From: a virus
Lineage: Duplodnaviria; Heunggongvirae; Uroviricota; Caudoviricetes
IMG/VR virus record: IMGVR_UViG_3300028859_000015
Strand: one strand, 5' to 3'
DNA: 23,649 bases
Shown here piece after piece: positions 4,385 to 20,691 of the stretch. The notes beneath the pieces are model-generated. The model was not told the origin of the DNA. It saw only the letters and a program-made list of their open reading frames with translations, and ran no database searches. Numbering within the stretch: the first letter of the stretch is position 1; every line of letters starts with the position of its first letter. Both the position numbers and the translations under genes were made by a program.

Positions 4385-4413
4385 TTAAGCTCTGGTTCTC
4401 CTTTATACTATAT

Positions 4414-4441
4414 ATTATCGGTATACTCTCAGAGTTATTAA
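4414..4441 (-). promoter_or_regulatory. Sigma-28-like -10 box ACCGATAAT, with TTAA at the -35 position
   Basis: Box at 4414-4422, 29 nt upstream of the ATG at 4384. TTAA lies 15 nt further upstream. Confidence 0.6.
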
Positions 4442-4462
4442 GTAAAGTAGGTAAAATAATAT

Positions 4463-4714
4463 TTATACTATTTGAAGCTTCCATAGATTACGTTCATCAG
4501 TATCCTTTGAATGTAGTCTGGTAATTATTATTTCTCCCATAGTATCATTATCCTTTAGATTAGTCTTTACATTTTTAAGAGTTATAAACTGAGTCTTTCC
4601 TATATGTGATGAAGTAATAACAGTACCCTTAATAAATTTACCATATAGTCTATATTCTATGACATCAGCGGAATTTACATTTTCTAGTTTTGGATTTCTT
4701 AAAGCCTTGGTCAT
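4463..4714 (-). CDS. Hypothetical protein, possibly a small SH3-like beta-barrel
   Basis: 83 aa with AAGGAG upstream. The pattern DVIEYRLYGKFIKGTVI is suggestive only. Confidence 0.7.
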   Translation of the reverse strand: MTKALRNPKLENVNSADVIEYRLYGKFIKGTVITSSHIGKTQFITLKNVKTNLKDNDTMGEIIITRLHSKDTDERNLWKLQIV

Positions 4715-4823
4715 TTATAACTCCTTTATTATGATTAATTCTATATTCCGCATCCGTCCCAAATTTCTAAGATAATATGTCTATTATTATACACTTTTAG
4801 TTTTATTGAAGTAAGATTTCATA

Positions 4824-5078
4824 CTAGTTATCTCCTCTTATATGTAAATCGGCATTAACTGAAACAACACAAAACTCATTAATAGTAAATACTTCTAATT
4901 GTCCATAAGAGTTATACATATATGTCTTATCAGCCAAAAATTTAGCTAGTGCCCTATTTGCTGACCACTTAAAACGAAACTGAAATGGAGGATATGTATA
5001 ACGAAAACTATAAGGCTCCTGTACCTTTATAGAAACCCAAGAACCCGTTGGTATATGTAAAATTCTATACTTAAGCAT
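4824..5078 (-). CDS. Small hypothetical protein, family A (LHIPTG subtype)
   Basis: 84 aa with a strong AGGAGGT SD. Motifs YRILHIPTGSWV, FRFKWSANRAL and NEFCVV. Confidence 0.8.
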   Translation of the reverse strand: MLKYRILHIPTGSWVSIKVQEPYSFRYTYPPFQFRFKWSANRALAKFLADKTYMYNSYGQLEVFTINEFCVVSVNADLHIRGDN

Positions 5079-5107
5079 TTCACCTCCTACATGTAATGCC
5101 TAACTAC

Positions 5108-5135
5108 ATTATCGGACTATATAGTAAATTTATTA
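5108..5135 (-). promoter_or_regulatory. Sigma-28-like promoter TAAT-N15-TCCGATAA
   Basis: Box at 5108-5116, 29 nt upstream of the ATG at 5078. Confidence 0.6.
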
Positions 5136-5512
5136 GCTTCTGCCTGTTCTTTTTTAGGAGTCTCTATTACTAGCAAAAGGGTATCTTTAGCTATTCTAAC
5201 ACAAGAGATATAAATGTCAGAAGTCTTATAATAATTTACTAACGCTAAAATAAGAATCTGAAACTCAATCGAAAAATCATCAGTATATTTAGCATCTTTT
5301 AGAGTAAGTTCTACTGATTTACTTTCTGCTAATTTTTCATTTATTTGCTTAACTAGTGAGTCAAATGCTGGCTTCATTTCTTTTGTTAAAGCCTCCATTT
5401 CTTGTTTAGTATAGGCATGAGATTTTTCAGGTATATTTACATGAGAAGGCTCATTAATAGAAATTAATGTAAATATAGGTAAAATTAAAGCTAATGTTAT
5501 ATTTAATAGCAT
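5117..5512 (-). CDS. Hypothetical membrane-anchored or secreted protein
   Basis: 131 aa with a hydrophobic N-terminus (MLLNITLALILPIFTLISI). Confidence 0.7.
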   Translation of the reverse strand: MLLNITLALILPIFTLISINEPSHVNIPEKSHAYTKQEMEALTKEMKPAFDSLVKQINEKLAESKSVELTLKDAKYTDDFSIEFQILILALVNYYKTSDIYISCVRIAKDTLLLVIETPKKEQAEANKFTI

Positions 5513-5596
5513 AATAGTGTCCTTAAAAGAAGATATAACTTACAAGTAATCATTAACACTATAAGCTATATTACATTTAATTATACATAAAGCATA

Positions 5597-5929
5597 CTAA
5601 CTAAAGGCCATTTTTAGCTCTTTTACCTTATTTAGTAACTCATCTCGTTCTTTATATACCTCCAATATATCCAATATATTAGGACCTTTACCAAATAAAA
5701 TACCTACTAAATCACCATCCTCATTATGAAATTCTGTCTTATTATCATCATCTAATGAATTTAGTTCATGATATAATCTTGAGTAATACTCGGCATTTTC
5801 TTTTTCTTCTTCATACAACTGTTTATAACGAAAAGCCTCAGCTTTAAACTCCTCTAAAAGAGCATTAGATTTAGTTAGTTTATCATTGAATAAATCAACT
5901 AACTTCTCTATTGTTACCGAATCTTCCAT
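5597..5929 (-). CDS. Hypothetical coiled-coil protein
   Basis: 110 aa, acidic with a heptad-like pattern. GGGAGG SD upstream. Confidence 0.8.
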   Translation of the reverse strand: MEDSVTIEKLVDLFNDKLTKSNALLEEFKAEAFRYKQLYEEEKENAEYYSRLYHELNSLDDDNKTEFHNEDGDLVGILFGKGPNILDILEVYKERDELLNKVKELKMAFS

Positions 5930-5965
5930 TTTAGCCTCCCTAGTTAAAAACTTCTTACAGTAAGT

Positions 5966-5974
5966 ATTATCGGC
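5966..5974 (-). promoter_or_regulatory. Sigma-28-like -10 box GCCGATAAT
   Basis: Exact match to the FliA -10 consensus GCCGATAA, 36 nt upstream of the ATG at 5929. The -35 position reads TTGA. Confidence 0.65.
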
Positions 5975-6012
5975 AAAAACAAAAACACCTCAAATTTTTA
6001 TGAGGTGTTTTT
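5975..6012 (-). terminator. Intrinsic terminator downstream of hsp20 (possibly bidirectional)
   Basis: Minus strand reads AAAAACACCTCA-TAAAAATT-TGAGGTGTTTTT-GTTTTT: a perfect 12-bp inverted repeat followed by a U-tract. Confidence 0.85.
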
Positions 6013-6032
6013 TACGTCTTCTGGTAGGTGTG

Positions 6033-6482
6033 TTATTTAATATCTATTACTTTTAGTTGCTTCTCTTCTGGTACAAGCTGTTCTAAATCTATAGTCAATA
6101 TACCTTCAGTAAATACTGCCTTATTAACTTTAATATTTTCAGCTAATTGAAAAGAGCGCTTAAATTGCTTTCCTGTAATTCCTCTATGTACTTCATAAAC
6201 CGATTCATCATGTTCTGATTTATGATGCCTACCCTCAAAGCAAGCAGTTTCATATAAATTAGAAGGACTATTTAGAGATATGACAGATAACACTCCATCT
6301 TTTAAAGTTATCTCTATATCCTTTTTAAGATATCCAGCCAATGCTAGTTCTATCTTAAAATTATTATCTCCTATACGATAAATATTGTACGGAGGAAATG
6401 CTTGTGTGTTAGATGTTTCAAATAGCCTGGAAAATAAAGTATCCATACCAATTGATAACTCTTTGTATTGATTCATATCCAT
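6033..6482 (-). CDS. hsp20: Small heat-shock protein Hsp20 (IbpA-like alpha-crystallin domain)
   Basis: Motifs FPPYNI, FKIELALAGY, GVLSV, VHRGITGKQFKRSFQLAE, AVFTEGILTIDL and K.IDIK. Confidence 0.95.
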   Translation of the reverse strand: MDMNQYKELSIGMDTLFSRLFETSNTQAFPPYNIYRIGDNNFKIELALAGYLKKDIEITLKDGVLSVISLNSPSNLYETACFEGRHHKSEHDESVYEVHRGITGKQFKRSFQLAENIKVNKAVFTEGILTIDLEQLVPEEKQLKVIDIK

Positions 6483-6487
6483 GTTAT

Positions 6488-6560
6488 ACCCCTTTAAGGC
6501 AGTTATTGAACCCTTTCGGCGTTCAGTTATTAATAAGAGTCTATACCAGAAGACCTCTTA
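6488..6560 (-). promoter_or_regulatory. Structured 5' leader of hsp20: ROSE-like RNA thermometer candidate
   Basis: Three consecutive hairpins at 6534-6560, 6507-6525 and 6488-6503, each with a bulged G. The last one pairs over the SD AGGGG. Confidence 0.65.
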
Positions 6561-6563
6561 AAA

Positions 6564-6869
6564 TTAATTCATTAAACATAACATTTCTAAAATCTCATCT
6601 TCATAGGCAATAAAATAATTTTCTAGTATTATTTGGTTATTAGTCTCATTAGTAGAGACTAAAGTTGCCCTCAAGAATATATCAGAGAGAATCCTATCAT
6701 AATTATCTAGTTGTACATTATATGAAGTAGTATTTATTCTCTTATGTAGTCTCTTTAATAGAACAGTGGCTTCATTTGAATAAACTCTACTAATATCTAA
6801 AAGAATCTCTGCTTTACATGAGATACTATATCTAAAAGAACTACTAACATGCTCAAAAGAACTACGCAT
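6564..6869 (-). CDS. Hypothetical protein
   Basis: 101-aa ORF overlapping the upstream gene by 8 nt. Confidence 0.65.
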   Translation of the reverse strand: MRSSFEHVSSSFRYSISCKAEILLDISRVYSNEATVLLKRLHKRINTTSYNVQLDNYDRILSDIFLRATLVSTNETNNQIILENYFIAYEDEILEMLCLMN

Positions 6870-7212
6870 GTTTACCTAACACTTCCCAAATAGATGAAAA
6901 TATATTCCTATTAAAGGCTCTTACAATTAATAATAAACTAGACAATACAGAGGAAAGTTGTAGCATATATTCTGTATAATAGGCATGATTAACTAATATT
7001 ATACTAAAACAAAACAATAACCATATAAAATACCTAGGAAAAAATATCTTTAAAATATAATCCTCTAACGTTCGTTTTCCATCAGATAAAAGAAAAATAC
7101 GAGTATATAGACTATTATTTTTTAATTTATATCTCAAAAAGAGAGTTAAAATACCCTCTACTAATAAACCACCAAGCAGTAAAAAAGTAAGGGCTGTTAT
7201 ATAGAAGAGCAT
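6862..7212 (-). CDS. Hypothetical membrane protein (about 3 TM segments)
   Basis: 116 aa with three hydrophobic stretches and a GAGGAG SD. Confidence 0.75.
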   Translation of the reverse strand: MLFYITALTFLLLGGLLVEGILTLFLRYKLKNNSLYTRIFLLSDGKRTLEDYILKIFFPRYFIWLLFCFSIILVNHAYYTEYMLQLSSVLSSLLLIVRAFNRNIFSSIWEVLGKHA

Positions 7213-7233
7213 TCAACCAAATCTCCTCTATAT

Positions 7234-7242
7234 ATTATCGGT
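7234..7242 (-). promoter_or_regulatory. Sigma-28-like -10 box ACCGATAAT
   Basis: Lies 21 nt upstream of the ATG at 7212. No TAAA at the -35 position. Confidence 0.55.
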
Positions 7243-7649
7243 TAGTAGTCCAGAGAAAATGAGACAGTTTGTGAAATAGTTTGGCCAGTAGACTTCATTT
7301 GAAGAACAAGCTCAAATATTCGTGTATTTTGTGAAGTGGCTGCTGTTATTTGCGTAACAGTTACACGTGGCTCCCAGGTTGCAATATCAGATATAATGGC
7401 ATCAGCTACCAAACTCTGTGTTGTATCATTAATTGGTTGAAATATTAAATCCTGAGCTGAACTGCCAAAGGAAGGATTTCCTGGCATACAACCTTTTTTA
7501 GAATTTAATAAAACATAAATAGAATCTGTTATCAAATCTAAATCAGTTTCCATGGCAAAAAAACCAGAAGAACTTTTTCTTGGCGGAAATGCTATACCAG
7601 AAAATGTAGAAGTTGTAGGAGTTGTTGGTGTATTTATTTTATAGCTCAT
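7242..7649 (-). CDS. Baseplate wedge subunit, T4 gp25/GpW-like
   Basis: Motifs GIAFP, LITDSIYVLLNSKKG.MP.NPSFGS, LIFQPI and IATWEPRVTV. Confidence 0.9.
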   Translation of the reverse strand: MSYKINTPTTPTTSTFSGIAFPPRKSSSGFFAMETDLDLITDSIYVLLNSKKGCMPGNPSFGSSAQDLIFQPINDTTQSLVADAIISDIATWEPRVTVTQITAATSQNTRIFELVLQMKSTGQTISQTVSFSLDY

Positions 7650-7663
7650 TTTAAAATTCCTTT

Positions 7664-7672
7664 ATTATATCA
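7664..7672 (-). promoter_or_regulatory. Extended -10 sigma-70/sigma-A type promoter TGnTATAAT
   Basis: Minus strand reads TGATATAAT immediately before AAAGGA and the ATG at 7649. The region is very AT-rich, so a chance match is possible. Confidence 0.4.
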
Positions 7673-7750
7673 GGTAATTAGATTATTTTATTTAGTACAT
7701 TTTCTATATTTAATTAAGTATAGGAAATTATTACTCAACTATTACGAATA

Positions 7751-7759
7751 TCCGATAAT
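7751..7759 (+). promoter_or_regulatory. Sigma-28-like -10 box TCCGATAAT
   Basis: Intergenic, 41 nt upstream of the ATG at 7801 and on the same strand as that gene. No TAAA at the -35 position. Confidence 0.55.
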
Positions 7760-7800
7760 CTTATAGGAAGTAATTATAGGGGTTATAGTAAATTAACTAT

Positions 7801-8625
7801 ATGAAATCATTTAATTCCACTATGTTCATAAAACCAATAAACATAACTGAAATGTCATTAGGTATATCTAATGATTTGTGGAAGTCATTAGAGAATCACA
7901 TAGGAGATAGTGAAGAATGGTTTAATAAATTAATAAAAACATCTAAGTGGTCTTCACAGATTTCCGATGCTACCTTAGAAGCTATTATAAAGAATTATTT
8001 TTTTACTTTACTAGAAAGAAATAATATAAATTTAATAGATTTGAAATGTAATTTCTACAAGACCGACGAAGCTGATAGTATTTATGGTAAATGTTCTTAT
8101 AATTTACTAAATTCTTCTAATAAATTAAAGCATATAAAAGAAATAAAGGCTAAGATAGATATATATATGTTTAGGCTATTAGAAGTTAACTCAAAAGATG
8201 CTATAAAAATATTATACCATGAACTAATTCATTGTGAAGAACTTACCAAAGCCTTAATAAACATAGGCACTGATAAAATGTTTAATACTATTCCACAATT
8301 TGAATGGGTAAGCGCTGACTTAGTAATAAATAAAAAAGAAAATAAAACAGAAGAAGACTATATAAATGATATCTCAGAAATAAATGCTTATGCCGGAGAA
8401 TTAGCCCTACAACTATACTATAAATATAAACTTGAATTTAAAGATAGAACCACTAAAGAACAGGACTATTTTATAAGAACTAAAATAATTCCAAATATAA
8501 AAAATGAATTTTCAAATAGCATACAAGTAAATTATATTAACAAATTAATAAAAAGCAATAAATTTTATATAGCGTTAATTAAACAGCTTTCTATATTAGC
8601 TTCTCATGTGGCAATAAATGAATAA
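7801..8625 (+). CDS. Putative zinc metallopeptidase-like protein (HExxH)
   Basis: ILYHELIHCEE, followed by YINDISEINAYAGE (candidate third-ligand Glu). Confidence 0.6.
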   Translation: MKSFNSTMFIKPINITEMSLGISNDLWKSLENHIGDSEEWFNKLIKTSKWSSQISDATLEAIIKNYFFTLLERNNINLIDLKCNFYKTDEADSIYGKCSYNLLNSSNKLKHIKEIKAKIDIYMFRLLEVNSKDAIKILYHELIHCEELTKALINIGTDKMFNTIPQFEWVSADLVINKKENKTEEDYINDISEINAYAGELALQLYYKYKLEFKDRTTKEQDYFIRTKIIPNIKNEFSNSIQVNYINKLIKSNKFYIALIKQLSILASHVAINE

Positions 8626-8941
8626 CACAGTATATGCCCTATTACATATTCCAACAGCAGAATACGTAACAGTAGACTACAAGACGGCATTATGTGAAGA
8701 CATACCTGCTGCCAATAAGCTACTATCTATAATGGTTTGTGATACCACTTATTATTGGGGACATCCTAGAACAGACTTTAGGATAGGTAAGATATCATTA
8801 AAGGAATACGAAATTCCACCAGATAGCTTAGAATTTGATATTGTGGCTATTCCTAAAAATGTCTTAAATGAGGAATCTTATAATCATATATTAAGCATAG
8901 GCTTTTATTATTGTAGTAAAACTATAGCCAGTATCATATAA
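8618..8941 (+). CDS. Small hypothetical protein, family A (LHIPT subtype)
   Basis: 107 aa. Motifs YALLHIPTAEYV, CEDIPAANKLL and LEFDIV. Confidence 0.75.
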   Translation: MNNTVYALLHIPTAEYVTVDYKTALCEDIPAANKLLSIMVCDTTYYWGHPRTDFRIGKISLKEYEIPPDSLEFDIVAIPKNVLNEESYNHILSIGFYYCSKTIASII

Positions 8942-8942
8942 A

Positions 8943-9176
8943 TTATAGAGGTATTACAGAAATTTTTAAAGCCAGTTTTAAGGGTACATTGATTCTTTTT
9001 TTATTTCCCTGAGAATATATATCTAACACAATACCCCGTTCTTTTATACCCTTAACTCTAACTCTTGCTCCTAGTTCAAGTTCCAAAGAAGTAAGTTCTT
9101 CCTTTGAAAAAGTATCTGTATCTAAAGCTTTAATAATACCTAATGAATTTTTTGGAAGTGCTGAAAGTAATATCAT
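8943..9176 (-). CDS. feoA: FeoA-like SH3-fold protein
   Basis: 77 aa with the pattern LSAL....GIIKAL......LTSLELELGARVRV......I.VPLKLALKISV. It lacks the usual RL.xMG and PLGDP motifs. Confidence 0.6.
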   Translation of the reverse strand: MILLSALPKNSLGIIKALDTDTFSKEELTSLELELGARVRVKGIKERGIVLDIYSQGNKKRINVPLKLALKISVIPL

Positions 9177-9205
9177 ATATTTAATTAGCTTATTTTAGGA
9201 TATTT

Positions 9206-9427
9206 ATGTATCAAATACTTCATATACCAAGTGGATGCTATGTAAAGTATAATGCTTATGAATTATATGATGCTTACAGACCAGGAGTTATCCTAAATAG
9301 CAGCAAAAATAAAACTGCTCCAGTAGTGTGTTCTACGGAGCAGGAGGCTAAGCAAGTAATAACTAATATCTTATTAATACTATCAGAAGCCTTAGATATT
9401 GAATTTGAAATTATTAAATTATATTAG
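9206..9427 (+). CDS. Small hypothetical protein, family A (LHIPSG subtype)
   Basis: 73 aa with AGGA upstream. Motifs YQILHIPSGCYV, CSTEQEAKQVI and IEFEII. Confidence 0.8.
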   Translation: MYQILHIPSGCYVKYNAYELYDAYRPGVILNSSKNKTAPVVCSTEQEAKQVITNILLILSEALDIEFEIIKLY

Positions 9428-10412
9428 ACTCTATAAGATTTCTAATCATGATATAGGTATATCCTTCTATATCGTTTATGGCTTGATTTAAAGCACAATA
9501 ATCAATAACTAAATCAACAAAAGGAAGGACATTAGTTCCTGCTACTGTTATATTAGTAAGTAAATCTATTAATCCTTTTTTAGATTTATCAAATGTCTGT
9601 AAAGCCTTTAAAATATATGTTTTATCATTTAAAAAAGATAAATAGCTATATTCAGGAGAAAAATATGGTTGGATATCAGGCAAAACTGATTTATTAACTA
9701 AATAAACTTCAGAAGACATACACTCTAATAACGCAGAAGCCTTAGAGAAAGCAGAAGTTGTTTTTGGATTTGTTGATAAATTATATACATAATTTGGAAC
9801 ATGTATAGCAGGAGTTAGACCTAGTTTAAGATTTTTTTTAAAACTTAAAAGTTTATTAGTAAAATCTAAAAATTTATAATTAACCAATGGCAAAAGTCTG
9901 GCTTTTAAAGAAGAAAAATAATCCTCTTTATTTTTTTTAATTGCCAATGAATCATCTAGTAAGGCATCTATATTAGATACCGGAGTTTCTGCTCTACATA
10001 TGGCTGAGAGTTCTAATCTATTATAACACATATCATAAGCAACAACAGCTAAACCCCTTCCTAAAGTATAAAATTCAAGTAAACTAGAAGCATTTATAAG
10101 TTCATCTGATAAATCATTCTCAACAAGAGTAAAATAATTGGAAGAAAGTAAATTATAAGTTATGGAATAAGAATTTTCTATAGAATATAGATAATCTTTT
10201 ACTATTTCCTTTGAAAAAGAAAAGGACAGCATTTCTTCATATGAGATATCAGAAAGATTTCTTGCGCCATAAGAAATAGGACCATAGGCAGTAGGGCTGA
10301 AGCTACCTGGACCATAGATGGTGGGTCTGGCACCAAGAGTATTAAGACTATTTGTATAATTTACTACGGTAGAGGTATTTGCGAAGCCATTAGCAAAATA
10401 AGGTGATGACAT
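9414..10412 (-). CDS. Hypothetical protein, possibly virion-associated
   Basis: 332 aa with a GAGGAG SD and a G/P/Y/S-rich N-terminus. Divergent from the baseplate genes. Confidence 0.85.
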   Translation of the reverse strand: MSSPYFANGFANTSTVVNYTNSLNTLGARPTIYGPGSFSPTAYGPISYGARNLSDISYEEMLSFSFSKEIVKDYLYSIENSYSITYNLLSSNYFTLVENDLSDELINASSLLEFYTLGRGLAVVAYDMCYNRLELSAICRAETPVSNIDALLDDSLAIKKNKEDYFSSLKARLLPLVNYKFLDFTNKLLSFKKNLKLGLTPAIHVPNYVYNLSTNPKTTSAFSKASALLECMSSEVYLVNKSVLPDIQPYFSPEYSYLSFLNDKTYILKALQTFDKSKKGLIDLLTNITVAGTNVLPFVDLVIDYCALNQAINDIEGYTYIMIRNLIESNII

Positions 10413-10430
10413 ATTTACTCCTCATTAATA

Positions 10431-10458
10431 ATATCGGCCTAAGTACAATTAAGTTTAG
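10431..10458 (-). promoter_or_regulatory. Consensus sigma-28 (FliA/SigD-type) promoter
   Basis: Minus strand reads C-TAAA-CTTAATTGTACTTAG-GCCGATAT, i.e. TAAA-N15-GCCGATAT, just upstream of the SD and ATG at 10412. Confidence 0.8.
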
Positions 10459-10479
10459 TCCAAGAAGGGTATAATAGAT

Positions 10480-10821
10480 ATGTCATTCATTACAAACTGG
10501 AATGGGGATGTTATACAGACTCCAGTATCTTCTGCTTTATGGAGTAATAAAGGAGGTATATTTACACCGGCTAATAGTTATTCAACTTATTATCCACTAC
10601 CTTCTGCTTATAGAACAGCAATTCCAATTGTTGGAACATATACTATACCACCACAGTTTGAAAATAGAGCAGACTTAATAGCCAACGCAGTGTATGGCTC
10701 AGAAGATTATTGGTGGTTAGTATTTTGGTTTAATGGTATTGTAGATCCATTTTCTACACTTACTGCTGGAACTACTTTATTATTAGCTGATATTACTACA
10801 GTAAATTCCACATTAGGATAA
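10480..10821 (+). CDS. Baseplate wedge protein, T4 gp53/LysM(Tail X)-like
   Basis: RADLIANAVYGSEDYWWLVFWFNGIVDPF..L..GTTL. Lies directly upstream of the gp5-like gene. Confidence 0.85.
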   Translation: MSFITNWNGDVIQTPVSSALWSNKGGIFTPANSYSTYYPLPSAYRTAIPIVGTYTIPPQFENRADLIANAVYGSEDYWWLVFWFNGIVDPFSTLTAGTTLLLADITTVNSTLG

Positions 10822-10824
10822 TAA

Positions 10825-13437
10825 ATGGCTGACAGAGAACAGCAAAAATATATGGAATATCTTTCCAAAGGTATTTCAGGTAATGTTACCAGAGGACTTG
10901 TGGTTGATGTAAATGACCCATTACAGTCTGGAAGAGTGCGTGTATGGATTCCATTACATCATGGTGGTATGGTTAAAAATGACCCAATATCTTTTGATGC
11001 CTCAGTATCTGGTAAAGCGGTATCAAGACTAGGAAATTTAGCAAGTAGTGATTCAATAACATGTCTTCCTTGGGCTCCTGTAATGAGCAATAATTGGGGT
11101 CCAGTAGTAGATTTACAATCAGGTACAGTTGCTTCTGTATTTGGTGTATATAATATACCTAAAATTGGTACTGAGGTATTTTTAATATTCGAAGATGACG
11201 ACCCTAATCATCCTATTGTTCTTGGAGCAGTTTATCATCAATCAGACTTAGTTCCATCACAAAGAAAAACTCCCTTAATAGAAATAACTCCAGGAACTAC
11301 TATAGCTACTACTCCAAATTTAGATTATAGTGGAACAGTATCTCAAAATTATTTAATACAAAGCCAAAATGGGTCCTCACTTTTATTAAGTGACACTGTT
11401 GGACAAGAAGAAATATATGTTGGAGGCTCCATTGGGTTTTTTACTACTGCCGAAACTGGTGATTATAGCACTCAATATCAGACATTTAGTTCCAATTATC
11501 CAAATTTTCCTACTACACAATCTGCTCCATATAGAGTTAGAAACTCTCTTATAAATACTTCAAATCCTCTTATAAATGTAAATTTATTACAGCCAACAAC
11601 TGCTCCAACTACCTCATTAGTAACTTCGCTAGGAACCACTACAACTACCACAGCGAACACTCAAGCTACTACTACCTCAACTACCTCTGGAACCATAACT
11701 AAACAATTACCCTTTGGTCAAAATATATCTCCCCTTTTACCTGGATCTGCCTCTACTGATGGTAAGGCTTTCTACGCAAAAAGAGCAAATGGAGAGGTAC
11801 ATTTAGGAGTAGATATTCGATTTGCTACCTCTGACCATACTACTCCATTACTTGCCCCTATAAATGGAACTGTAGTATTAGCACAATTAAGCTCAAGTGC
11901 TGGAAATTGGATAATATTTTTAGGGGCTGATGGATATTGTCATACTTTTTGCCACCTAAGTGTTATAAGCTGTTCTGTAGGACAATCTTATCAAATAGGA
12001 GCTGTATTAGGACATACTGGAGGTCAGCCTGGAACAGCAGGCGCAGGTAATACAACAGGACCGCATCTACATTGGGAAGTATGGAATCCCTCTGGTGCTA
12101 CTACCAATTCTGCTATAATTAATGTAAGAAATGTAGCAAGAAAACCAAGTAATGTAGCTGGTCAAACTGGATATTACCCAAAATCAAATGGAGTTTTAAT
12201 ATTTGAAGATGGAGTAAAGACATGGCTAGGAAAACAAGTAACAGGTGTTAATACACAAGCCATGTTAGGAGCTACACAAATAGACTCTTATGTTCAGATG
12301 TACAATACAGCTACTGATTATACCCACGATAAGCCTATTGGTTTAGAAGTGTCGTTAAATCCTGGGGCAGAACAAATATTTATAAGGCACTCTTCTGGTG
12401 CGTTTTTAGGGTTTGATCCAGATGGCAATTTTAAACTGTATACGCCAGGATCAGCTGACTTTAAAATAAATAGAAATTTAGTATTTGATGTGCTAGGTGG
12501 TATTTTTAATTCCTGTATGGCCATGTATACTAGAGCAAGAGAGGTAATAAAATTCTTATCTGGAGGAAGAGCAATGGAAACATATCATATTAATGCTTTT
12601 ACAGACTTTCCTACCGATAAAAATAGTTCCAATATCTTATCTAAGTATAATCTACCAAAAATATTTTCCAGAATAGACCTATTCAGAAAAAATGATATGA
12701 ATGATGCTATAACTCAAAGTTCTTCTAATGTATATTATACATTAGCTACTGGATTTTTAGGTAAATCAGCATCAGCTATACAAACAGATGGATATGCGGC
12801 ACAACCTGACCAGGATGCTATTAACCAAATTAACTTTAATTTTTCTTTGGATGATGGTTATATAAATAAGAGCTGGTCAACCTATATTAAAAGCAATAAC
12901 AATCCTATAGCTTCTCATATAACACCTAAGATACTTAAGGCAATGCTTCTTCTTGCTTGTAAAGGAAACCCAAGTCCAGCATCAAATGACGGATTATCTG
13001 GAGTATTTCAATTAGCTTCCATAGCAGCAACCACAATAAAGGGTAATTCAGCTTCCCTAACGTCTTATCTAAGTCCACAAGACAATATAGATTTAGCAGT
13101 ACAATTTATAAACAGTAGAGCTAATGCTATGTATACTTTTTTAGGCACTAAAGTAATATATTCTGATGATTCTAGTGGAGTAATTGGAGGCAAAGAATAT
13201 GCTATGAGAGCTGTCTTAATGGATTATTTGTATTGTATGTATACTAACACAGTTTCTACAGATATAGAATATTTGTATCAAGCAGTAGTAAATGGTGGTG
13301 GCTTTGGTTATCCCGCCCTAGAACAAAATTTTGCTACTTCTGCCTTATTAGCAGATGCCAGCACTTATAAAAATGCCGTAAATTGTTATGGGGCAACTAT
13401 TATAGCAATTACTAATAGTTCGGCTTTTAGTATATAG
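10825..13437 (+). CDS. Baseplate central spike (gp5/VgrG OB-fold) with M23 peptidase and a degenerate lytic-transglycosylase-like domain
   Basis: OB-fold: GLVVDVNDPLQSGRVRVWIP, LPWA, PKIGTEVFLIFEDDDPNHPIVLG. M23: HLGVD, HTFCHL, GPHLHWEV. Spike strands: RHSSGAFLGFDPDGNF. SLT-like: GNP...S.DG.SGVFQL and PQDNI. Confidence 0.9.
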   Translation: MADREQQKYMEYLSKGISGNVTRGLVVDVNDPLQSGRVRVWIPLHHGGMVKNDPISFDASVSGKAVSRLGNLASSDSITCLPWAPVMSNNWGPVVDLQSGTVASVFGVYNIPKIGTEVFLIFEDDDPNHPIVLGAVYHQSDLVPSQRKTPLIEITPGTTIATTPNLDYSGTVSQNYLIQSQNGSSLLLSDTVGQEEIYVGGSIGFFTTAETGDYSTQYQTFSSNYPNFPTTQSAPYRVRNSLINTSNPLINVNLLQPTTAPTTSLVTSLGTTTTTTANTQATTTSTTSGTITKQLPFGQNISPLLPGSASTDGKAFYAKRANGEVHLGVDIRFATSDHTTPLLAPINGTVVLAQLSSSAGNWIIFLGADGYCHTFCHLSVISCSVGQSYQIGAVLGHTGGQPGTAGAGNTTGPHLHWEVWNPSGATTNSAIINVRNVARKPSNVAGQTGYYPKSNGVLIFEDGVKTWLGKQVTGVNTQAMLGATQIDSYVQMYNTATDYTHDKPIGLEVSLNPGAEQIFIRHSSGAFLGFDPDGNFKLYTPGSADFKINRNLVFDVLGGIFNSCMAMYTRAREVIKFLSGGRAMETYHINAFTDFPTDKNSSNILSKYNLPKIFSRIDLFRKNDMNDAITQSSSNVYYTLATGFLGKSASAIQTDGYAAQPDQDAINQINFNFSLDDGYINKSWSTYIKSNNNPIASHITPKILKAMLLLACKGNPSPASNDGLSGVFQLASIAATTIKGNSASLTSYLSPQDNIDLAVQFINSRANAMYTFLGTKVIYSDDSSGVIGGKEYAMRAVLMDYLYCMYTNTVSTDIEYLYQAVVNGGGFGYPALEQNFATSALLADASTYKNAVNCYGATIIAITNSSAFSI

Positions 13438-13448
13438 GAATTAAGTAT

Positions 13449-16445
13449 ATGGATATGACACTAAAACAACTAATAAAACATATACTAACTGAGGAAGTAG
13501 TAGACCCAGAGCAGGAAAATATAGTAGATATTTTGGCTAGATTTAAAAAAGAAGCCGAAGATGAGACTACTGTAGCTAACGAAGAGGAAGAGCAGTCTAA
13601 ATTAGCAAAAGAAGCAAATGATAATAAAGTAGAGGAAGCCTTTGGAAATGAGTCAGTAATCTCTAAAGAGTCTCAGGAGATAGAAAAACCAAATACAAAA
13701 ATAATAATTCCAATAATATCTTTATATAACAATATAAAAAACTCTGGTATAGATTCTATGTCTCTTTTAGCTAAAGGTTCTGAAAATACAGTAGAGGAAG
13801 TATCAAAGACAATAGCAAAGTCAATAGTTGAATATAGAAAAAATCCAAATATACAGCGTAAACTACAACAAGCTTTTGAACAAGGAATAAAACCAAATCC
13901 AAGCAATTATTTAAATGAAGAGCAACTAATAAGTAATTTAAAAGTATCCCTAATACGCTGTAAACTATACTTCTGGACTGCTCTTAATATTTACAGAGAA
14001 CCAGAAGTATTTGTAAAGTCATCTTCAAAAGAGCAAAAAGAAGCAGAAAAATCAGGAATAGTTTCTGCTGATTCAGGAGATAATATAAAAACAAGCTATC
14101 CAAGCTTAAACTATTCCAAAATTTTTACTGAATTAATGAATCCTTCTGATAAAGAGCTAGACAGTGTTTATTATATGTTTAGAGAGTTGGCTTCTAATCA
14201 GTATAGTAATGATATATCTGAACTACAAAAAATAATATTATCCAAAAATGATTTACTGACTAAATTTCTATCTAAAAAAATAAAACTTCAACAGGCTTCC
14301 TCAATACAAAATACAATTAAGGAGGCTATACAAAGACCTTCTTTTGATTATAATAACATAAAAAAGGCTGCTGATAGAATTAAAAAAGAGCAAGAATTAC
14401 AAGGAAGAGAAGTAGCCAAGTCAGAAACACCAATAGGAAGTGTTGATGTGGAAAAGCCCTCCAACTATACTGGAGATGCTGTTTCTAAAACTGATGAGCT
14501 TAGAAATAAGTTATTTGACAGATACTTCAATACTCTTATATCAGAATATTTTTATGCCACTACAGAAAATATAAGTAAAATTGATGAAAGAATTTACGAA
14601 AAATTAGCCAACCCTATATCACTAAATTTATTTTTTAAGGGAAGAAGATTATCAGGTCAAAAATATGAAACCAAAGGTCTAGACACTACTTCTTCAAAAG
14701 ATAAAAATATAATTCTAAGAAATGCTACTACTAGTATAGAGGACATAGAAACTACAGAATCAGCAACTATAACAAATAAAGAAGCCTATCTTCTTAATAA
14801 TAAAAATTTATTTCATGAGTATTTTAATTCTACAAACTATACAAGTTGTGTAGGAGAGTTTTTAGAGAAATGGTCTAAACAATCAGATAAATTTTTAGTT
14901 AAAATATTTGATAAACAAAGTAATAATCTAGTAGATATTAATTTATTAGAATATTTATATAAACAGTCTAGTCATTATTTACCCACTAGTGGAACAGCTA
15001 TTACTGAATTACAGATAGATATTTTATCCTGTGCTAGGCATTTAATAACTTTGGATGGTGAACCTGCTAACGTTTCAGAATCAAATTTTAGTGAATTTTA
15101 TTCAGAGTTATATGGACTAGTAGTGTCTAAATATAAATTGCAGGAATTTACCTTTGCTGGAACTAATAATACAACAAAGGAAGCTGCTAGGCAAGCTTTT
15201 GGATTAGAAGAAATGGGAACAATAGAAACCTCAAATGAGCGCTCTTTTGGTAGATGGGCGGAAAAGGGCACATTTAAAGATAGACTATTAATAAAAATTA
15301 ATAGTATAACTGATCCAGCTTTTGAGAATATAAAAGAAAATGTAATAGAGCAATTAGAAACTATTACAGACCATGGAAAAATTTTAGATATTTCCATAAG
15401 ACTTATTGGAGAAGTAGCTACAGAAAACTTATTACGTGGGTCTTCAGATGAAAAACTTTATAGGGTAGCAAATAAATCAGAGTTGACCGTCCTATCCAAA
15501 GAATTAGCCAAGAAATTAGATGGGATAATGGTATTAGATCCAGTTAATACTTCTGATATTACTACATATATAATAACCCAAAATTTTAAGATAGGTAAAA
15601 AAGAACTTCTTAATTGGCTACTTACTTCTGACATAGCTTCTTGTGAAAAATTAAAAACTGAAATTACTCAGACTCCTAAATTTAAAGCATTAGCTCCAAG
15701 AAAAGTAGCTAGCCAAACAGCCATTATAGCCTCATTTGATGCTTTAATTCTAGAAAAAAAGAAAGCTGCCGGATTAACTGAAAGCTTAGAGCAGGAACAG
15801 AGAGTAAGTGATATATTAAGACAAGCAGCTATTAAAGCTTTTGCTACTTCTTTAATTCCTAATTTACAATTTATAGGAAAAGAGCTTAATAAATTTGGAA
15901 GATTTTTAATAAATCTATCACAGTATCCAGAATATTATATCGATACAATAAAAAAGACAGAAGAATCTGCCCGTAAATTTAGATCTGCGCTAAGAAATTT
16001 CTTACTGCCTATAAGTAGAATAAAACAACTAGTAGAAATTTATGAAGAAATAAAAGATGTAATGGAAGAGGAATTATCACCATTAGATAATCCAGTATTT
16101 AAAAATAATTTTTCTAGGATAAAAAGTTGGTTACTGGAATTTTTTAAGATGGATAATAATTTAAAGGTAAAAATGGCAATAAAAATAGCTGAAGAAGAGA
16201 ATGATTGGAAACCTCTTAAACAGCTATTATATGATAATTGGGATGTAATAGTCAAAAGATTAAGCGATTCTAATGGCAATCTTACTTCAATAGGAAAACT
16301 TATATCAGGATTAATATTTAAATCAGCAGCATATGCTAAACCATATAAGTCAACTACAGGTTCTGAAGAAGAAGACCTAAAAAATCAAGAACTACTAAAA
16401 AAAGCAGGAGTTAAACTCAAGAGCTCAAGATTTGCTTCTCTATAG
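13449..16445 (+). CDS. Large hypothetical protein (998 aa), possibly virion-internal
   Basis: Long uninterrupted ORF, co-oriented with the baseplate genes. Helical and charged, with no recognisable catalytic motif. Confidence 0.9.
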   Translation: MDMTLKQLIKHILTEEVVDPEQENIVDILARFKKEAEDETTVANEEEEQSKLAKEANDNKVEEAFGNESVISKESQEIEKPNTKIIIPIISLYNNIKNSGIDSMSLLAKGSENTVEEVSKTIAKSIVEYRKNPNIQRKLQQAFEQGIKPNPSNYLNEEQLISNLKVSLIRCKLYFWTALNIYREPEVFVKSSSKEQKEAEKSGIVSADSGDNIKTSYPSLNYSKIFTELMNPSDKELDSVYYMFRELASNQYSNDISELQKIILSKNDLLTKFLSKKIKLQQASSIQNTIKEAIQRPSFDYNNIKKAADRIKKEQELQGREVAKSETPIGSVDVEKPSNYTGDAVSKTDELRNKLFDRYFNTLISEYFYATTENISKIDERIYEKLANPISLNLFFKGRRLSGQKYETKGLDTTSSKDKNIILRNATTSIEDIETTESATITNKEAYLLNNKNLFHEYFNSTNYTSCVGEFLEKWSKQSDKFLVKIFDKQSNNLVDINLLEYLYKQSSHYLPTSGTAITELQIDILSCARHLITLDGEPANVSESNFSEFYSELYGLVVSKYKLQEFTFAGTNNTTKEAARQAFGLEEMGTIETSNERSFGRWAEKGTFKDRLLIKINSITDPAFENIKENVIEQLETITDHGKILDISIRLIGEVATENLLRGSSDEKLYRVANKSELTVLSKELAKKLDGIMVLDPVNTSDITTYIITQNFKIGKKELLNWLLTSDIASCEKLKTEITQTPKFKALAPRKVASQTAIIASFDALILEKKKAAGLTESLEQEQRVSDILRQAAIKAFATSLIPNLQFIGKELNKFGRFLINLSQYPEYYIDTIKKTEESARKFRSALRNFLLPISRIKQLVEIYEEIKDVMEEELSPLDNPVFKNNFSRIKSWLLEFFKMDNNLKVKMAIKIAEEENDWKPLKQLLYDNWDVIVKRLSDSNGNLTSIGKLISGLIFKSAAYAKPYKSTTGSEEEDLKNQELLKKAGVKLKSSRFASL

Positions 16446-16931
16446 TTTAGCGTTAGATACTAGGATAGCTCTTAAATACTCCTCTACAGTATCTGTAGAA
16501 AGCTTTTTCATAAATAATTTTCTAGAAGACATAAAACCCATAGTTATAGTAGCATAAAATACATGCTTAGTAGCCTTTAAAAATAGAAACTCATATAAGA
16601 AATAATGTAACTGATATTTAAGAGAATATAAAAAACTGAGCATTCTAAAAAAAGATACATTCTTATAATCATGTAAAAGCATAAGACAAGGAAGAGCCTT
16701 AGCAGTAGAAAGAGCTCTATCCTCATCACATTTAGACATAGCTAGCTCTAAATGGAAAGATGGAACATACACAGTATTTTTATAAACACAATACTGACCT
16801 CTACTAGCTAATCTTACAAACCAAGGAGCCTGAGATAACATTTCAAAGGGAGATGTATCCTCCTTTGTTGATGCTTTCACTACATCTATGACATAAGGCA
16901 AAGCGTAAAGTTGCTTATTTAAAAAACGCAT
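16440..16931 (-). CDS. Hypothetical protein
   Basis: 163 aa, coupled to dut by a TAATG overlap at 16931. Confidence 0.75.
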   Translation of the reverse strand: MRFLNKQLYALPYVIDVVKASTKEDTSPFEMLSQAPWFVRLASRGQYCVYKNTVYVPSFHLELAMSKCDEDRALSTAKALPCLMLLHDYKNVSFFRMLSFLYSLKYQLHYFLYEFLFLKATKHVFYATITMGFMSSRKLFMKKLSTDTVEEYLRAILVSNAKL

Positions 16932-17389
16932 TATACACCACTACTACCAAAACCCTTAGCCTTTCTTGATCTAACACTCTCTTCATTCTTAAAATCATCA
17001 AGATTAATTTCAGCTATCTCACAAGGCCTTACTTCTTCAATTGAGAATTGACATATGGCTGTTCCAGAATCTATAATTTGAGCAGTATCTGATGTATTAA
17101 GTAGTAAAACCTTCAAACGACCTGTATAGGCTTGGTCAATAACTCCAGCAGATACTTTTATGCCTTTTCTATAAGCAAGTCCAGAGCGTTCATGAAACTT
17201 AATCCAACAATGTTCTGGAATAATACAAGAAAGTTCTGTATCAACTAAAACCTGTTCATGTGAGGGGATGAACAAAGGCTCTTTATTAAGTGGGTAATAT
17301 AAATCAAAGCAAGCATCAGTAGGATAATTCTTCTTTGGAAGAATAGCATTATTACTTGCTTTTAAGAACTTAAGTGTAATTGGTCTCAT
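16931..17389 (-). CDS. dut: Trimeric dUTPase
   Basis: All five motifs present: DACFDL, RSGLA, GVIDQAYTG, ICQ, RKAKGFGSSG. TAAGGAG SD. Confidence 0.97.
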   Translation of the reverse strand: MRPITLKFLKASNNAILPKKNYPTDACFDLYYPLNKEPLFIPSHEQVLVDTELSCIIPEHCWIKFHERSGLAYRKGIKVSAGVIDQAYTGRLKVLLLNTSDTAQIIDSGTAICQFSIEEVRPCEIAEINLDDFKNEESVRSRKAKGFGSSGV

Positions 17390-17409
17390 CAGACTCCTTA
17401 ATTAAGTGT

Positions 17410-17826
17410 ATGATACAACTAAATTTTAATCTATTTCCTTTGTCTACAAATAAGCTATACGTAAACATTCCTGGCCAAAAAAGGCGTTTTGTATCTACTG
17501 AAGGTAAAAAATTCAAAGCCACAATAGAAGAAGAAGTAAAGAAAGGTCTAAGTAATAAAGAAACCCTACTTTATTTATCGTCATTAATAGGAAAAAAATT
17601 AACAGTTCTTATAGAAGTAACCTCTGATAAATGGTTCTTAAAAGATAAAAAAACTATAAGAATGCTTGATATAGAAAACACAGCTAAAGCACTTTTGGAC
17701 TCTATCTTTACAGCCTATAAAGATAGTAATTTAGAGTTAGATGATAAACAGATATTCGAACTTAAATTAAGTAAAAAAGTTGGACTGACAGATTCTACAC
17801 TTGTTCAAATTTCTGAATTGCTGTAG
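17410..17826 (+). CDS. rusA: RusA-like Holliday junction resolvase
   Basis: Motifs PLSTNKLY, STEGKKFK, DIENTAKALLDSI and DDKQI. Start moved to the ATG at 17410 to avoid overlapping the dut start. Confidence 0.85.
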   Translation: MIQLNFNLFPLSTNKLYVNIPGQKRRFVSTEGKKFKATIEEEVKKGLSNKETLLYLSSLIGKKLTVLIEVTSDKWFLKDKKTIRMLDIENTAKALLDSIFTAYKDSNLELDDKQIFELKLSKKVGLTDSTLVQISELL

Positions 17827-19594
17827 ATATAGTAGAAGTCTCAGTAGCACCATCTTTTATAACCTGTATAGCATATCCAGGTTTAGTCTTAACTAATTCA
17901 TCATGAGATATTAGGATTATCTGATATTCGTGAGATAATGAATCTACTACTTTTAAGACAGCCAATTTACTTGCTTCTGAGAGACCATCTAAGGCTTCAT
18001 CTAATACTAAAACAGACATATTAAATCCAGCAGTTTTAAGTAGTGATAGAAGAGATAAAGTCATTGAAATCTCAAGTCTACCCTTCTCACCAGTAGAGAA
18101 CATTCCTGAGTTTCTTCCATTAATAGTAAAATCTAATGTAGGGTTATCCTTTTCGTCATTTATAAAGAACTTAACTTGCATAGGTTTTTCATATACAATA
18201 GTAGCATATTGACTGGCTAAAGCATTAAGAACATTTATTTCTTCTTTAATATAACTTAATCTTAAACCATTTTTAGAAACTATTTGTTTCCATGCCACGT
18301 TAATTTTTAACTGTTTTTCATGTTCTTTTAGAGAGGCTCTAAGTTCAATTAACTCTTTCTTTAATTTTAATAATAGTTCTTCGTTAAAGGCAGAAGAGGC
18401 TAACTCAAGACTTTCTTTATTGTTTGATAAGGCTCTTTCCAAAGCTATTAAATTTGTCTGAACAAAGGACAACGAAGACGATAACTTAGTAGCAGTCTTT
18501 TCCATTTGGTCTTTTAGGGCTTTTATTTTATCTATTTTAGATAGCTTTTCTATTAATTTTATAGATACTTCAGAAATTCGCACATTAAGAGTGGTTAACT
18601 CATCATCATAATGATGCTTTACTGCTTCTTTTGAATGCTCTGTTAATGAGGATTTACAAATAGAGCACTCTAAATTGCCTTGTTTATTAGTTTTAAAAGA
18701 CTTTAAAACTGCCTTTTTCTTTATTTCTAAACCAGATTTCATAACCTCTATAGAACGTTTCTCTGCTGATAAATCGCTATATTCTAAGCTAAAGGGTTCC
18801 AGTTTGGTATTACATTCAGAAATAAGGGCTCTAGTATTATACAATTTTTCAGATATAGTGTGTTCTTGTTTCTGATAGCCTTGAATCTCTTCCTCATGTT
18901 CCTTTATACTGCTTTTTATAGTTTCTATATTAGAGCAATATATTTCTTTTTTAGTAGCTTCAGCAATGTATAAGTTATTTTTATCTGTTATTAAATAGTT
19001 TATGGAAGAAATAGATTCCTCACTACTTTTAATAGCTGTATTTATCTTTTTCACAACAGACTCTATACGTTTTACGGCCAAAGACTGCTCAAGTCGTTCA
19101 AATCTTTCTGAGGGCCTAAGTTTAGTAAATCCTGGAAGCATTACAGAGAAGATGGTGGAGAGGAAATTAGTATGGTCTATCCCTACTATGGCCCGAATAG
19201 CCTCATCAATTCTAGTAATTGTCATGTCTTGCGATATACAAACACCATTCTTCCATAATTTTGCTTTATTTACCTCAGAATTGGGTCTTTTCCAGCGTTC
19301 AACCTTAATTAGATTATTATTTTCATCTATTATTTCTAATCCCACATAAATACCACCATTTTGATTATTTTTAGAGATATAATCTGAGATATAAGAGCTT
19401 CTAATGCCCTTTCCAAATAACGCTAAGCTTATTCCATCAATAAGTAAGGATTTTCCAGCTCCATTACTCTGTAAGGAACTACTCAAATAAGAACCAAATA
19501 CCAGATTAATACAATCCCTAGAAAACTCCACAGTATTACGAGTCTGAAACACTACAAAATTCTCAAGCGTTAGGCTTTTAAGTTTAAATGCCAT
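17795..19594 (-). CDS. sbcC: Recombination ATPase SbcC/Rad50/T4 gp46-like
   Basis: Walker A NGAGKS, coiled coils with a CSIC zinc hook, signature FSTGE, Walker B LVLDEALDGL, and ISHD. Confidence 0.96.
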   Translation of the reverse strand: MAFKLKSLTLENFVVFQTRNTVEFSRDCINLVFGSYLSSSLQSNGAGKSLLIDGISLALFGKGIRSSYISDYISKNNQNGGIYVGLEIIDENNNLIKVERWKRPNSEVNKAKLWKNGVCISQDMTITRIDEAIRAIVGIDHTNFLSTIFSVMLPGFTKLRPSERFERLEQSLAVKRIESVVKKINTAIKSSEESISSINYLITDKNNLYIAEATKKEIYCSNIETIKSSIKEHEEEIQGYQKQEHTISEKLYNTRALISECNTKLEPFSLEYSDLSAEKRSIEVMKSGLEIKKKAVLKSFKTNKQGNLECSICKSSLTEHSKEAVKHHYDDELTTLNVRISEVSIKLIEKLSKIDKIKALKDQMEKTATKLSSSLSFVQTNLIALERALSNNKESLELASSAFNEELLLKLKKELIELRASLKEHEKQLKINVAWKQIVSKNGLRLSYIKEEINVLNALASQYATIVYEKPMQVKFFINDEKDNPTLDFTINGRNSGMFSTGEKGRLEISMTLSLLSLLKTAGFNMSVLVLDEALDGLSEASKLAVLKVVDSLSHEYQIILISHDELVKTKPGYAIQVIKDGATETSTISTAIQKFEQV

Positions 19595-20634
19595 TATAGA
19601 TTCACCATAAAATGCTCTCCAACTGTTTTAAACTCTTCTAAACTCACTCCTTCTGGTAGATATAATCCAGCATTATTCAAAATATACTCCTTTAAGCTAG
19701 ATGAGTTTCTTTTTTCTATGTTTAATATACTAATTTGAGTTTCATTTTCTTCATTATTCTTAGTTAATAGTTCAAAACCCTTAGTAGAACCCAATAACTT
19801 AGTTATTTCTATTACATTTTCTGGTGAAGTATATACTCTATAGTAAGCATTACTATTCAAAGTCTCTAAATTAAGCATTAAATTGGTATCTATAGTAGTT
19901 ATAAACTCAGGAGAATATGGATTTTCTATAAATTCCAGAGAATTTTTGTCTGTATCTAAGATCCAGCAACCCTTTTTACCTGTTTCATTAAATTTTTTGT
20001 TTAGTAAAGTTCCTAAATACACTACTTTAGCATTTAAATCTGTTGTAGGAACATGAAAATGTCCAGTAAATACTCTATCAAAAAAGTTAAGGTTGATTTT
20101 AGATAAATCTACAGCATCTGGGTCAACTGAGATAGTTTTAGTGTCCCAAAAATGCCCAAAGAAATACTTTTTACCAGGACAATCATACTTCTTCTCAAAC
20201 TCAGTAAAAGCTGAATAGATATCTGTTGTCTCTCTTAAATAAGGTAAGAAAAACAACCTGGCATCTTGTGTATCTATAAAAGAAGGCTTTGAAAATATAT
20301 TAATTATAGGATTAAAAAGGTCTAAAATATTATGATTACTAGAAATCATATCATGGTTTCCTATAAGCCAGTAATTTCTAGGAAAAGCAGACTTAACTCG
20401 CTTAAAAAGCTCTGCTATGGCCAATCCTTCTCTAGTATGAAGGCGTTCTGCCACATCAAAAGTATCTCCTGAAGAGATAAAACTCTCAGCATGGTGCTCT
20501 TTTCCTACCTTTATAACCCAATCCACACTATCTATAATCTCTTGTAAACGAGAAGGGGTCCCGTTTTCTAAAACCCTATCAAACGCTGCAGAAAATTTTA
20601 GATGAAAATCTGAGGCTATAACTATTTTTCCCAT
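19594..20634 (-). CDS. sbcD: Recombination nuclease SbcD/Mre11/T4 gp47-like
   Basis: Metallophosphoesterase motifs SDFH, GDTFD, GNHD, GHF and GHFH. Coupled to sbcC by a TAATG overlap. Confidence 0.96.
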   Translation of the reverse strand: MGKIVIASDFHLKFSAAFDRVLENGTPSRLQEIIDSVDWVIKVGKEHHAESFISSGDTFDVAERLHTREGLAIAELFKRVKSAFPRNYWLIGNHDMISSNHNILDLFNPIINIFSKPSFIDTQDARLFFLPYLRETTDIYSAFTEFEKKYDCPGKKYFFGHFWDTKTISVDPDAVDLSKINLNFFDRVFTGHFHVPTTDLNAKVVYLGTLLNKKFNETGKKGCWILDTDKNSLEFIENPYSPEFITTIDTNLMLNLETLNSNAYYRVYTSPENVIEITKLLGSTKGFELLTKNNEENETQISILNIEKRNSSSLKEYILNNAGLYLPEGVSLEEFKTVGEHFMVNL

Positions 20635-20653
20635 AAACCCTCTCTAATACTCA

Positions 20654-20681
20654 ATATCGGCATAGGCCCATCATTCTTTAG
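20654..20681 (-). promoter_or_regulatory. Consensus sigma-28 (FliA/SigD-type) promoter
   Basis: Minus strand reads C-TAAA-GAATGATGGGCCTAT-GCCGATAT, i.e. TAAA-N15-GCCGATAT, upstream of the sbcD SD (GAGAGGG) and ATG. Confidence 0.8.
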
Positions 20682-20691
20682 CTACTCAATA

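Follow-up and report, generated by a model that had tools for sequence, protein, structure and literature searches.

What reads the short sequence CCGATAWT, which recurs in front of genes of an uncultured phage, is the question raised by the DNA examined here, a stretch of 23,649 nucleotides (nt) from IMG/VR virus record IMGVR_UViG_3300028859_000015 (the window, meaning the whole of this stretch). Its phage is an uncultured myovirus of about 30% GC, belonging to a jumbo-phage clade of peat and freshwater metagenomes whose near-complete contigs, the clade being defined by SbcD homologues, measure 213-238 kb. These sequences are probably (at odds of roughly 60%) sigma-28-type promoters of one transcription class of this clade, which would be read by a phage FliA/WhiG-like sigma factor acting on the host core RNA polymerase.

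Eight copies of CCGATAWT were identified in the window, against 0.78 expected (standard deviation 0.84) from dinucleotide-preserving shuffles. In 100 such shuffles the count never came to eight, and CCGATAWT is the most over-represented octamer of the window, at 29 times its second-order Markov expectation. All eight copies read CCGATA(A/T)T, and seven of them are intergenic and oriented like the next gene:

4414, 5108, 5966 and 7234, minus strand: copies of CCGATAAT
7752, plus strand: copy of CCGATAAT
10430 and 20653, minus strand: copies of CCGATATT

The end of these seven copies lies 17, 18, 21, 29, 29, 36 and 41 nt from the next ATG, with a Shine-Dalgarno sequence between each copy and its ATG. 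Three are preceded by a G, and those at 10430 and 20653 read CTAAA-N15-GCCGATAT. An initial annotation, made from the letters of the window, had described these seven copies as exceeding chance and as lying on the coding strand 17-41 nt before an ATG, two of them with the CTAAA spacing. A renewed motif search of the window returned the same coordinates and strands for all seven, and the placement, the two spaced copies and the excess over chance were each reproduced.

Near-identity and protein searches of cultured phages returned nothing close to the window, and a scan of bacterial and archaeal genomes found no relatives of its SbcD. Within the jumbo-phage clade, the SbcD- and SbcC-like genes have 62 full-length homologues. 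The window was extended on both sides by overlapping near-identical contigs, in a walk with exact-protein look-ups, to give a composite of 57.4 kb. The rest of this composite holds one further intergenic CCGATAT (at about -648) and two TCGATA variants upstream of right-side genes, so the motif is concentrated in the window. Four relatives were taken whole from IMG/VR for comparison:

G001: 230,154 bp, CheckV completeness 93%, SbcD 58% identical to that of the window
G002: 213,189 bp, CheckV completeness 95%, SbcD 50% identical
G003: 127,104 bp, CheckV completeness 56%, SbcD 47% identical
G004: 67,598 bp, CheckV completeness 29%, SbcD 69% identical

The core of the motif, CGATA, was profiled by position relative to the start codons of 884 genes, taken from the composite and the four relatives. 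Sense copies peak between -40 and -21 (58 in two bins, compared with about six per 10-nt bin elsewhere), while the antisense profile is flat. This is the upstream and strand enrichment that the initial annotation had proposed as a check of its promoters. Ahead of the SbcD start, 12 of 13 relatives also have CGATA at a distance of some 17-25 nt, including relatives whose protein is as little as 47% identical, although the flanking DNA otherwise defies alignment. In a relative whose SbcD is 85% identical, a CTAAAG/CTAAAC box and CGATATT are kept both before SbcD and before the orthologue of a 332-amino-acid (aa) gene of the window, with altered spacers. Kept boxes with changed spacers are, in terms of sequence, the classic footprint of a two-box promoter. 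Three independent lines of evidence (position and strand, conservation, and context) thus agree in indicating a functional motif.

The type of promoter was assessed against the E. coli sigma-28 consensus, TAAAGTTT-N11-GCCGATAA (PMC2859248), using 55 upstream sites chosen only by CGATA and a downstream ribosome-binding site. Their flanks show g at -2 and C at -1, and the consensus over -21 to -14 is T(69%)-w-A-A-G(42% compared with a 16% background)-T-T-t. The copies in the window conform to the composite -10 element GCCGATAA with its conserved C-13 and G-12. When TAAAGTTT was slid over the upstream 45 nt, the best offset was -21, equal to the canonical N11; 3.80 of the 8 positions matched there, the mean being 2.57 (z = 5). 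The same offset ranks top separately in four of the five genomes (G001, G002, G004 and the composite), and 807 other CGATA sites score 2.63 there, close to background. The -35 signal, with TAAA expected 15 nt and the whole octamer 11 nt upstream of the G, is weak but in register. By these measures the candidate promoters pair a strong -10 box with a -35 box that is weak but stands in the canonical sigma-28 register. This pattern matches that described for E. coli sigma-28 initiation complexes, in which contacts to the -10 element are extensive, C-13 and G-12 are critical and -35 contacts are weak (bioRxiv 10.1101/2020.01.02.893370). The initial annotation had listed two consensus copies and five -10-only boxes; its sigma-28-type assignment is supported by the -10 element conserved across relatives, and the five boxes are better described as having weak -35 elements in register. 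Matches to sigma-70 promoters (TTGACA-N17-TATAAT) in the window are at chance level (71, with 71.1 expected in shuffles). The T4 late-type box TATAAATA shows no upstream enrichment in the relatives, and the window motif differs from it. The bases that follow CGATA vary by lineage, being AAT or ATT in the window, ACT in G001 and G004, and ATA in G003.

A search of the four relatives for Sigma70_r2 revealed two kinds of gene. The first encodes proteins of about 220-266 aa in which both Pfam regions 2 and 4 are present (PF04542 at 55 and 42 bits, PF04545 at 51.5 and 28.6 bits, all above cut-offs). Their best NCBIfam family is FliA_WhiG (TIGR02479; 143.9 and 131.1 bits, compared with 73 and 55 for SigBFG), a full-length match covering model positions 3-221 of 224 and lying about 70 bits over SigBFG. 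The best matches among solved structures are FliA of Pseudomonas aeruginosa, WhiG of Streptomyces and FliA of E. coli. The nearest cellular homologues are bacterial FliA proteins (31-37% identity), which rank after some 20 phage clusters, and among cultured phages nothing is nearer than 30% identity (Bacillus phage SigF-like factors, range 24-30%). In an alignment with E. coli FliA (6pmi_F), the phage sigma retains the equivalents of R74, which contacts C-13, and of T69 and R220. The gene is found in all five near-complete relatives:

G001 and G002: near-complete relatives carrying the sigma gene
233,172-bp contig: near-complete, sigma gene present, also with a 69% SbcD
225,674-bp contig: near-complete, sigma gene present, also with a 58% SbcD
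220,571-bp contig: near-complete, sigma gene present, with length and study as recorded for the contig with the 85%-identical SbcD

In several independent contigs the sigma gene is located within a replication module, with ligase, a split PolA and GP88 around it. This module is rich in mobile insertions at the sigma loci of the relatives (L081, L085 and L082): the DnaB near the sigma gene possesses intein and homing-endonuclease domains, and the nearby DNA polymerase A is divided over two genes, separated in one relative by a LAGLIDADG gene. No domains of beta, beta-prime or T7-type polymerases were identified in G001 (93% complete) or G002 (95% complete); with no genes for RNA polymerase catalytic subunits, these phages must therefore use the host core polymerase.

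Several observations weigh against the reading of these boxes as promoters of a phage-encoded sigma factor. The scores of the clade sigma fall below the curated FliA_WhiG cut-off of 189.6 bits, and on sequence it is FliA-like without being a certified member of the FliA/WhiG family. Four contact residues of E. coli FliA are replaced in it (R58 by N, Q63 by K, Q73 by Y and K208 by Y); P. aeruginosa FliA likewise differs from that of E. coli at 58, 63 and 73. Matches of the -35 boxes to the octamer are poor (2-4 of 8) in five of the seven window promoters, the other two having 6 of 8. The 55-site set was selected on CGATA, which leaves only flanks and positions as independent evidence from it, and the genes of the relatives are simple longest-open-reading-frame calls and thus crude. 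Finally, the sigma gene of the window's own phage was not found among database proteins or by walking: candidates P0197, P0087 and P0200 each proved to derive from a sample other than that of the window, the similarity between P0198 and P0199 is only 83%, and the 57.4-kb composite did not reach the replication module, which in G001 is about 100 kb from SbcD. The search for a FliA-like gene with both sigma regions, suggested in the initial annotation, has hence succeeded in the relatives and not for the window's own phage. On the strength of clade-wide conservation, the genome of the window's phage is likely to carry a FliA-like gene as well.

These results bear on the two sources of specificity that had been offered at the outset, namely borrowing of the host flagellar sigma factor or a sigma-28-like factor of the phage itself. 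If host FliA or SigD read the promoters, alone or beside a phage factor, the class would be expressed only in motile cells. The -10 element equals the bacterial consensus, two copies match CTAAA-N15-GCCGATAT exactly and the sigma gene has not been found for the window's own genome, all of which would fit such borrowing. It is however unnecessary where a FliA-like sigma is encoded by every near-complete relative, and the lineage-specific bases after CGATA fit co-evolution with a phage factor. Nothing points to flagellotropy. Borrowing is regarded as unlikely, if still a contender, and the phage's own factor is favoured. The flagellotropic lifestyle envisaged in the initial annotation, and the coupling of the SbcCD operon to host motility, find no support in the data.

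Two further explanations dispense with sigma-28 specificity altogether. GATAAT is one base from TATAAT, and in a generic scan certain copies are paired with hexamers resembling a -35 box (one case being TTGAGG-N16-GATAAT at 5993-5966), as would be expected if GATAAT/GATATT served as a -10 hexamer of the sigma-70 type, extended upstream by CC. The invariant bases, however, are a C and a G unread by sigma-70, while the tail of the hexamer varies in the relatives (GATACT, GATATA); there is no enrichment of TTGACA-like boxes, the sigma-70 scan gave no more matches than chance would, and the -35 signal is TAAAGTTT-like at sigma-28 spacing. This explanation is regarded as very unlikely. Hardly more credit is given to a role other than that of a promoter, as the site of a phage DNA- or RNA-binding regulator or as an RNA processing signal in 5' leaders. 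Such a role would suit the rather fixed distance to the start codons and the very short predicted leaders, which place the Shine-Dalgarno sequence nearly at the 5' end, yet it leaves unexplained the in-register TAAAGTTT-like box, the boxes directly behind terminators and the presence, in the same clade, of a sigma gene of the cognate type.

The preferred reading, that of promoters for a phage sigma, would work as follows. A FliA/WhiG-like sigma encoded by the phage and expressed from the replication module would direct the host core RNA polymerase to a -10 box gCCGATA(A/T)T, in which C-13 and G-12 never vary, and to a weak TAAAGTTT-like -35 box 11 nt upstream of the G. Transcription would begin about 7 nt past the box, with predicted leaders of 11-35 nt. 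The class would comprise recombination, nucleotide-metabolism and small accessory genes, and in the relatives a second sigma-like gene. It is most likely a transcription switch run by the phage and not a link to host motility.

The individual predicted promoters of the window, together with the nuclease genes that form the best-annotated cargo of the class, are as follows:

20646..20680, minus strand: promoter of the SbcD-SbcC operon, -35 TAAAGAAT at 20673-20680, -10 GCCGATATT at 20653-20661
17795..20634, minus strand: SbcD-like (346 aa) and SbcC-like (599 aa) recombination nuclease genes (Pfam Metallophos, AAA_23/SMC_N)
10423..10457, minus strand: promoter of the 332-aa gene (9414-10412), -35 TAAACTTA at 10450-10457, -10 GCCGATATT, predicted start about 10423
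7732..7766, plus strand: promoter of 274-aa and 107-aa genes (7801-8941), -10 CCGATAAT at 7752-7759, predicted start about 7766
7227..7261, minus strand: promoter of a 116-aa membrane-protein gene and a 101-aa gene, -10 CCGATAAT at 7234-7241, -35 poor (3 of 8)
5959..5993, minus strand: promoter of a 110-aa gene (5597-5929), -10 GCCGATAAT at 5966-5974
5101..5135, minus strand: promoter of an 84-aa gene (4824-5078), -10 CCGATAAT at 5108-5115, -35 TAATAAAT (4 of 8)
4407..4441, minus strand: promoter of a 188-aa gene (3818-4384) and the small genes behind it, -10 CCGATAAT at 4414-4421, -35 TTAATAAC (3 of 8)
46..80, plus strand: eighth copy of CCGATAAT, box at 66-73, inside a same-strand 430-aa open reading frame, with TACAGATG in the -35 register (5 of 8)

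The SbcD-SbcC promoter has a predicted start at about 20646 and a leader of about 12 nt. At 7732..7766 the -35 box is poor (TACTCAAC, 2 of 8), and the -10 box at 7234-7241 immediately adjoins the stop codon of the gp25-like baseplate gene. An intrinsic terminator hairpin at 5981-6012 directly precedes the 5959..5993 promoter, and this terminator-then-promoter arrangement recurs in relatives, for instance at 2235 in L021. The eighth copy is either a chance copy, about one of which is expected, or an internal promoter. Neither the 83-aa gene (4463-4714) nor the 131-aa gene (5117-5512) has a CGATA box; the minus-strand regions ahead of them, 4715-4823 and 5513-5596, hold TGTATAAT, which resembles an extended -10 box for a primary sigma. 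Such boxes may serve as early promoters, read by the host sigma and scattered among those of the CGATA class.

In the window, CGATA promoters precede SbcD-SbcC, the 332-aa and 274-aa orphans and four sets of small genes; apart from SbcD-SbcC, none of the genes behind them has a PHROG or Pfam match. Among the relatives they precede a RecA/UvsX-like recombinase (G001, G002), the ribonucleotide reductase large subunit (G002), SbcD, dUTPase, an HD 5'-deoxynucleotidase, an HNH endonuclease and many small open reading frames, and a PDDEXK nuclease has one in G003, G004 and the composite. By its content the class looks like a middle or delayed-early one. The dUTPase gene has a CGATA promoter in G001 (172072-172551) and none in the window (16931-17389, minus strand), and class membership therefore turns over between relatives.

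The second kind of gene found with Sigma70_r2 encodes a sigma-like protein of 318-334 aa in the relatives, with a weak region-2 match and no PHROG match, at the following positions:

L043:1030-1986, minus strand: second sigma-like gene
L041:1027-2004, minus strand: second sigma-like gene
G002 61093-62097, minus strand: second sigma-like gene

In G001 it adjoins the RecA/UvsX-like gene. CGATA promoters stand before it in G001 and G002, with -35 matches, counted by eye, of 7 of 8 and 6 of 8, and in G004 an endonuclease gene has been inserted immediately before it, with a CGATA promoter preceding that gene. These promoters suggest a two-step sigma cascade. A further word, AATTAA(A/G)T, is most frequent 20-30 nt upstream of the start codons of the relatives (34 in one 10-nt bin in G001, compared with about four), where it precedes the major head and portal genes; in the window its copy at 10447-10455 precedes the baseplate-hub operon. 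The window positions noted are these:

10447-10455, plus strand: AATTAA(A/G)T
21015-23, minus strand: AATTAA(A/G)T
7707-15, minus strand: AATTAA(A/G)T

AATTAARTW is not over-represented across the window (7 copies, with 9.6 expected), where only its positions are suggestive, and the word may mark a late promoter class. In the divergent intergenic region 10413-10479, the minus-strand -35 box CTAAACTTAATTG is the reverse complement of the plus-strand AATTAAGTTTAG before the baseplate operon, so that two candidate promoters overlap back to back.

It is tentatively possible, though rather doubtful, that the clade captured both a flagellar-type sigma and the promoter code belonging to it, and that this sigma begins such a cascade. 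The FliA-like factor would then drive the middle genes and the second sigma-like gene, the product of which would read the AATTAA-type promoters of the head and portal genes. Host FliA could also fire promoters written in the sigma-28 code, which would render early expression sensitive to host motility.

Phages classically time their gene expression by sigma factors that they encode, and the well-studied factors use promoter codes of their own. The promoters described here share with the class 3 flagellar promoters of E. coli and Salmonella (TAAAGTTT-N11-GCCGATAA, read by sigma-28/FliA) and with those of B. subtilis SigD the same -10 core with C-13 and G-12, the same spacing to a TAAA-type -35 box, and a dominant -10 beside a weak -35. 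They differ in belonging to a phage genome, with recombination, nucleotide-metabolism and orphan genes downstream instead of flagellar ones, and in a far more degenerate -35 box; their likely reader is a divergent phage homologue, not host FliA. As in Bacillus phage SPO1 (gp28 for middle genes, gp33/gp34 for late genes), where alternative sigmas of the phage redirect the host core polymerase to phage promoter classes, a first phage sigma seems to govern the gene of a second, by way of the CGATA promoters of G001, G002 and G004. The SPO1 sigma factors have unrelated promoter consensus sequences of their own. Unlike them, the clade sigma falls in the FliA/WhiG branch and would have kept the ancestral sigma-28 specificity, the relationship being only that of the general sigma-70 family.

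The clade resembles T4, with its gp55 late promoters (TATAAATA), and the group 2 jumbo phages in being large myoviruses with phage sigmas, no RNA polymerase of their own and -10-dominated promoters. It differs from T4 in its motif, which is not TATAAATA, and in a sigma that is a full two-domain (regions 2 and 4) FliA-like protein in place of the minimal gp55 type. Group 2 jumbo phages are known to possess sigma factors but no polymerase, FliA-type factors being unmentioned (Iyer et al. 2021, PMC7824862). The SigF/SigG-like factors carried by Bacillus phages, for which host manipulation has been proposed (Schwartz et al. 2022, PMC9429907), are likewise phage-borne homologues of group 3 bacterial alternative sigmas and the nearest cultured-phage matches. 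At 24-30% identity, however, they are of a sporulation and not a flagellar family, and their proposed role does not involve a phage promoter class. In the literature searched, no account was found in which a phage sigma of the FliA family is paired with sigma-28-type promoters. While phage-encoded sigmas are already known, this pairing, as read from sequence, appears to be without precedent there.

Besides the genes named above, the window encodes a gp25-like baseplate wedge, a gp5/VgrG-type hub with an M23 peptidase domain, RusA, dUTPase, an SLT lysozyme, a SpeD-like decarboxylase and many small orphans. Contigs of peat, bog and permafrost metagenomes, the longest of 114 kb, carry proteins identical to those of the window, and the SbcD of its phage is recorded in 76 blocks of the metagenome collection; this phage is widespread in northern peatlands. 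Assembled contigs of peat and permafrost metatranscriptomes, compared with positions 3500-21500, yielded phage fragments of at least 99% identity in four runs from four studies, and parts of this stretch are held by 19 RNA runs. The fragments may be transcripts or carried-over DNA, since contigs do not reveal starts, strands or expression.

A clade of abundant uncultured jumbo phages thus appears to use a FliA-family factor that retains the ancestral flagellar promoter code. This raises the question of cross-talk with the host flagellar regulon, in either direction, and the promoter-and-sigma pair is usable for annotating transcription units in the genomes of the clade.

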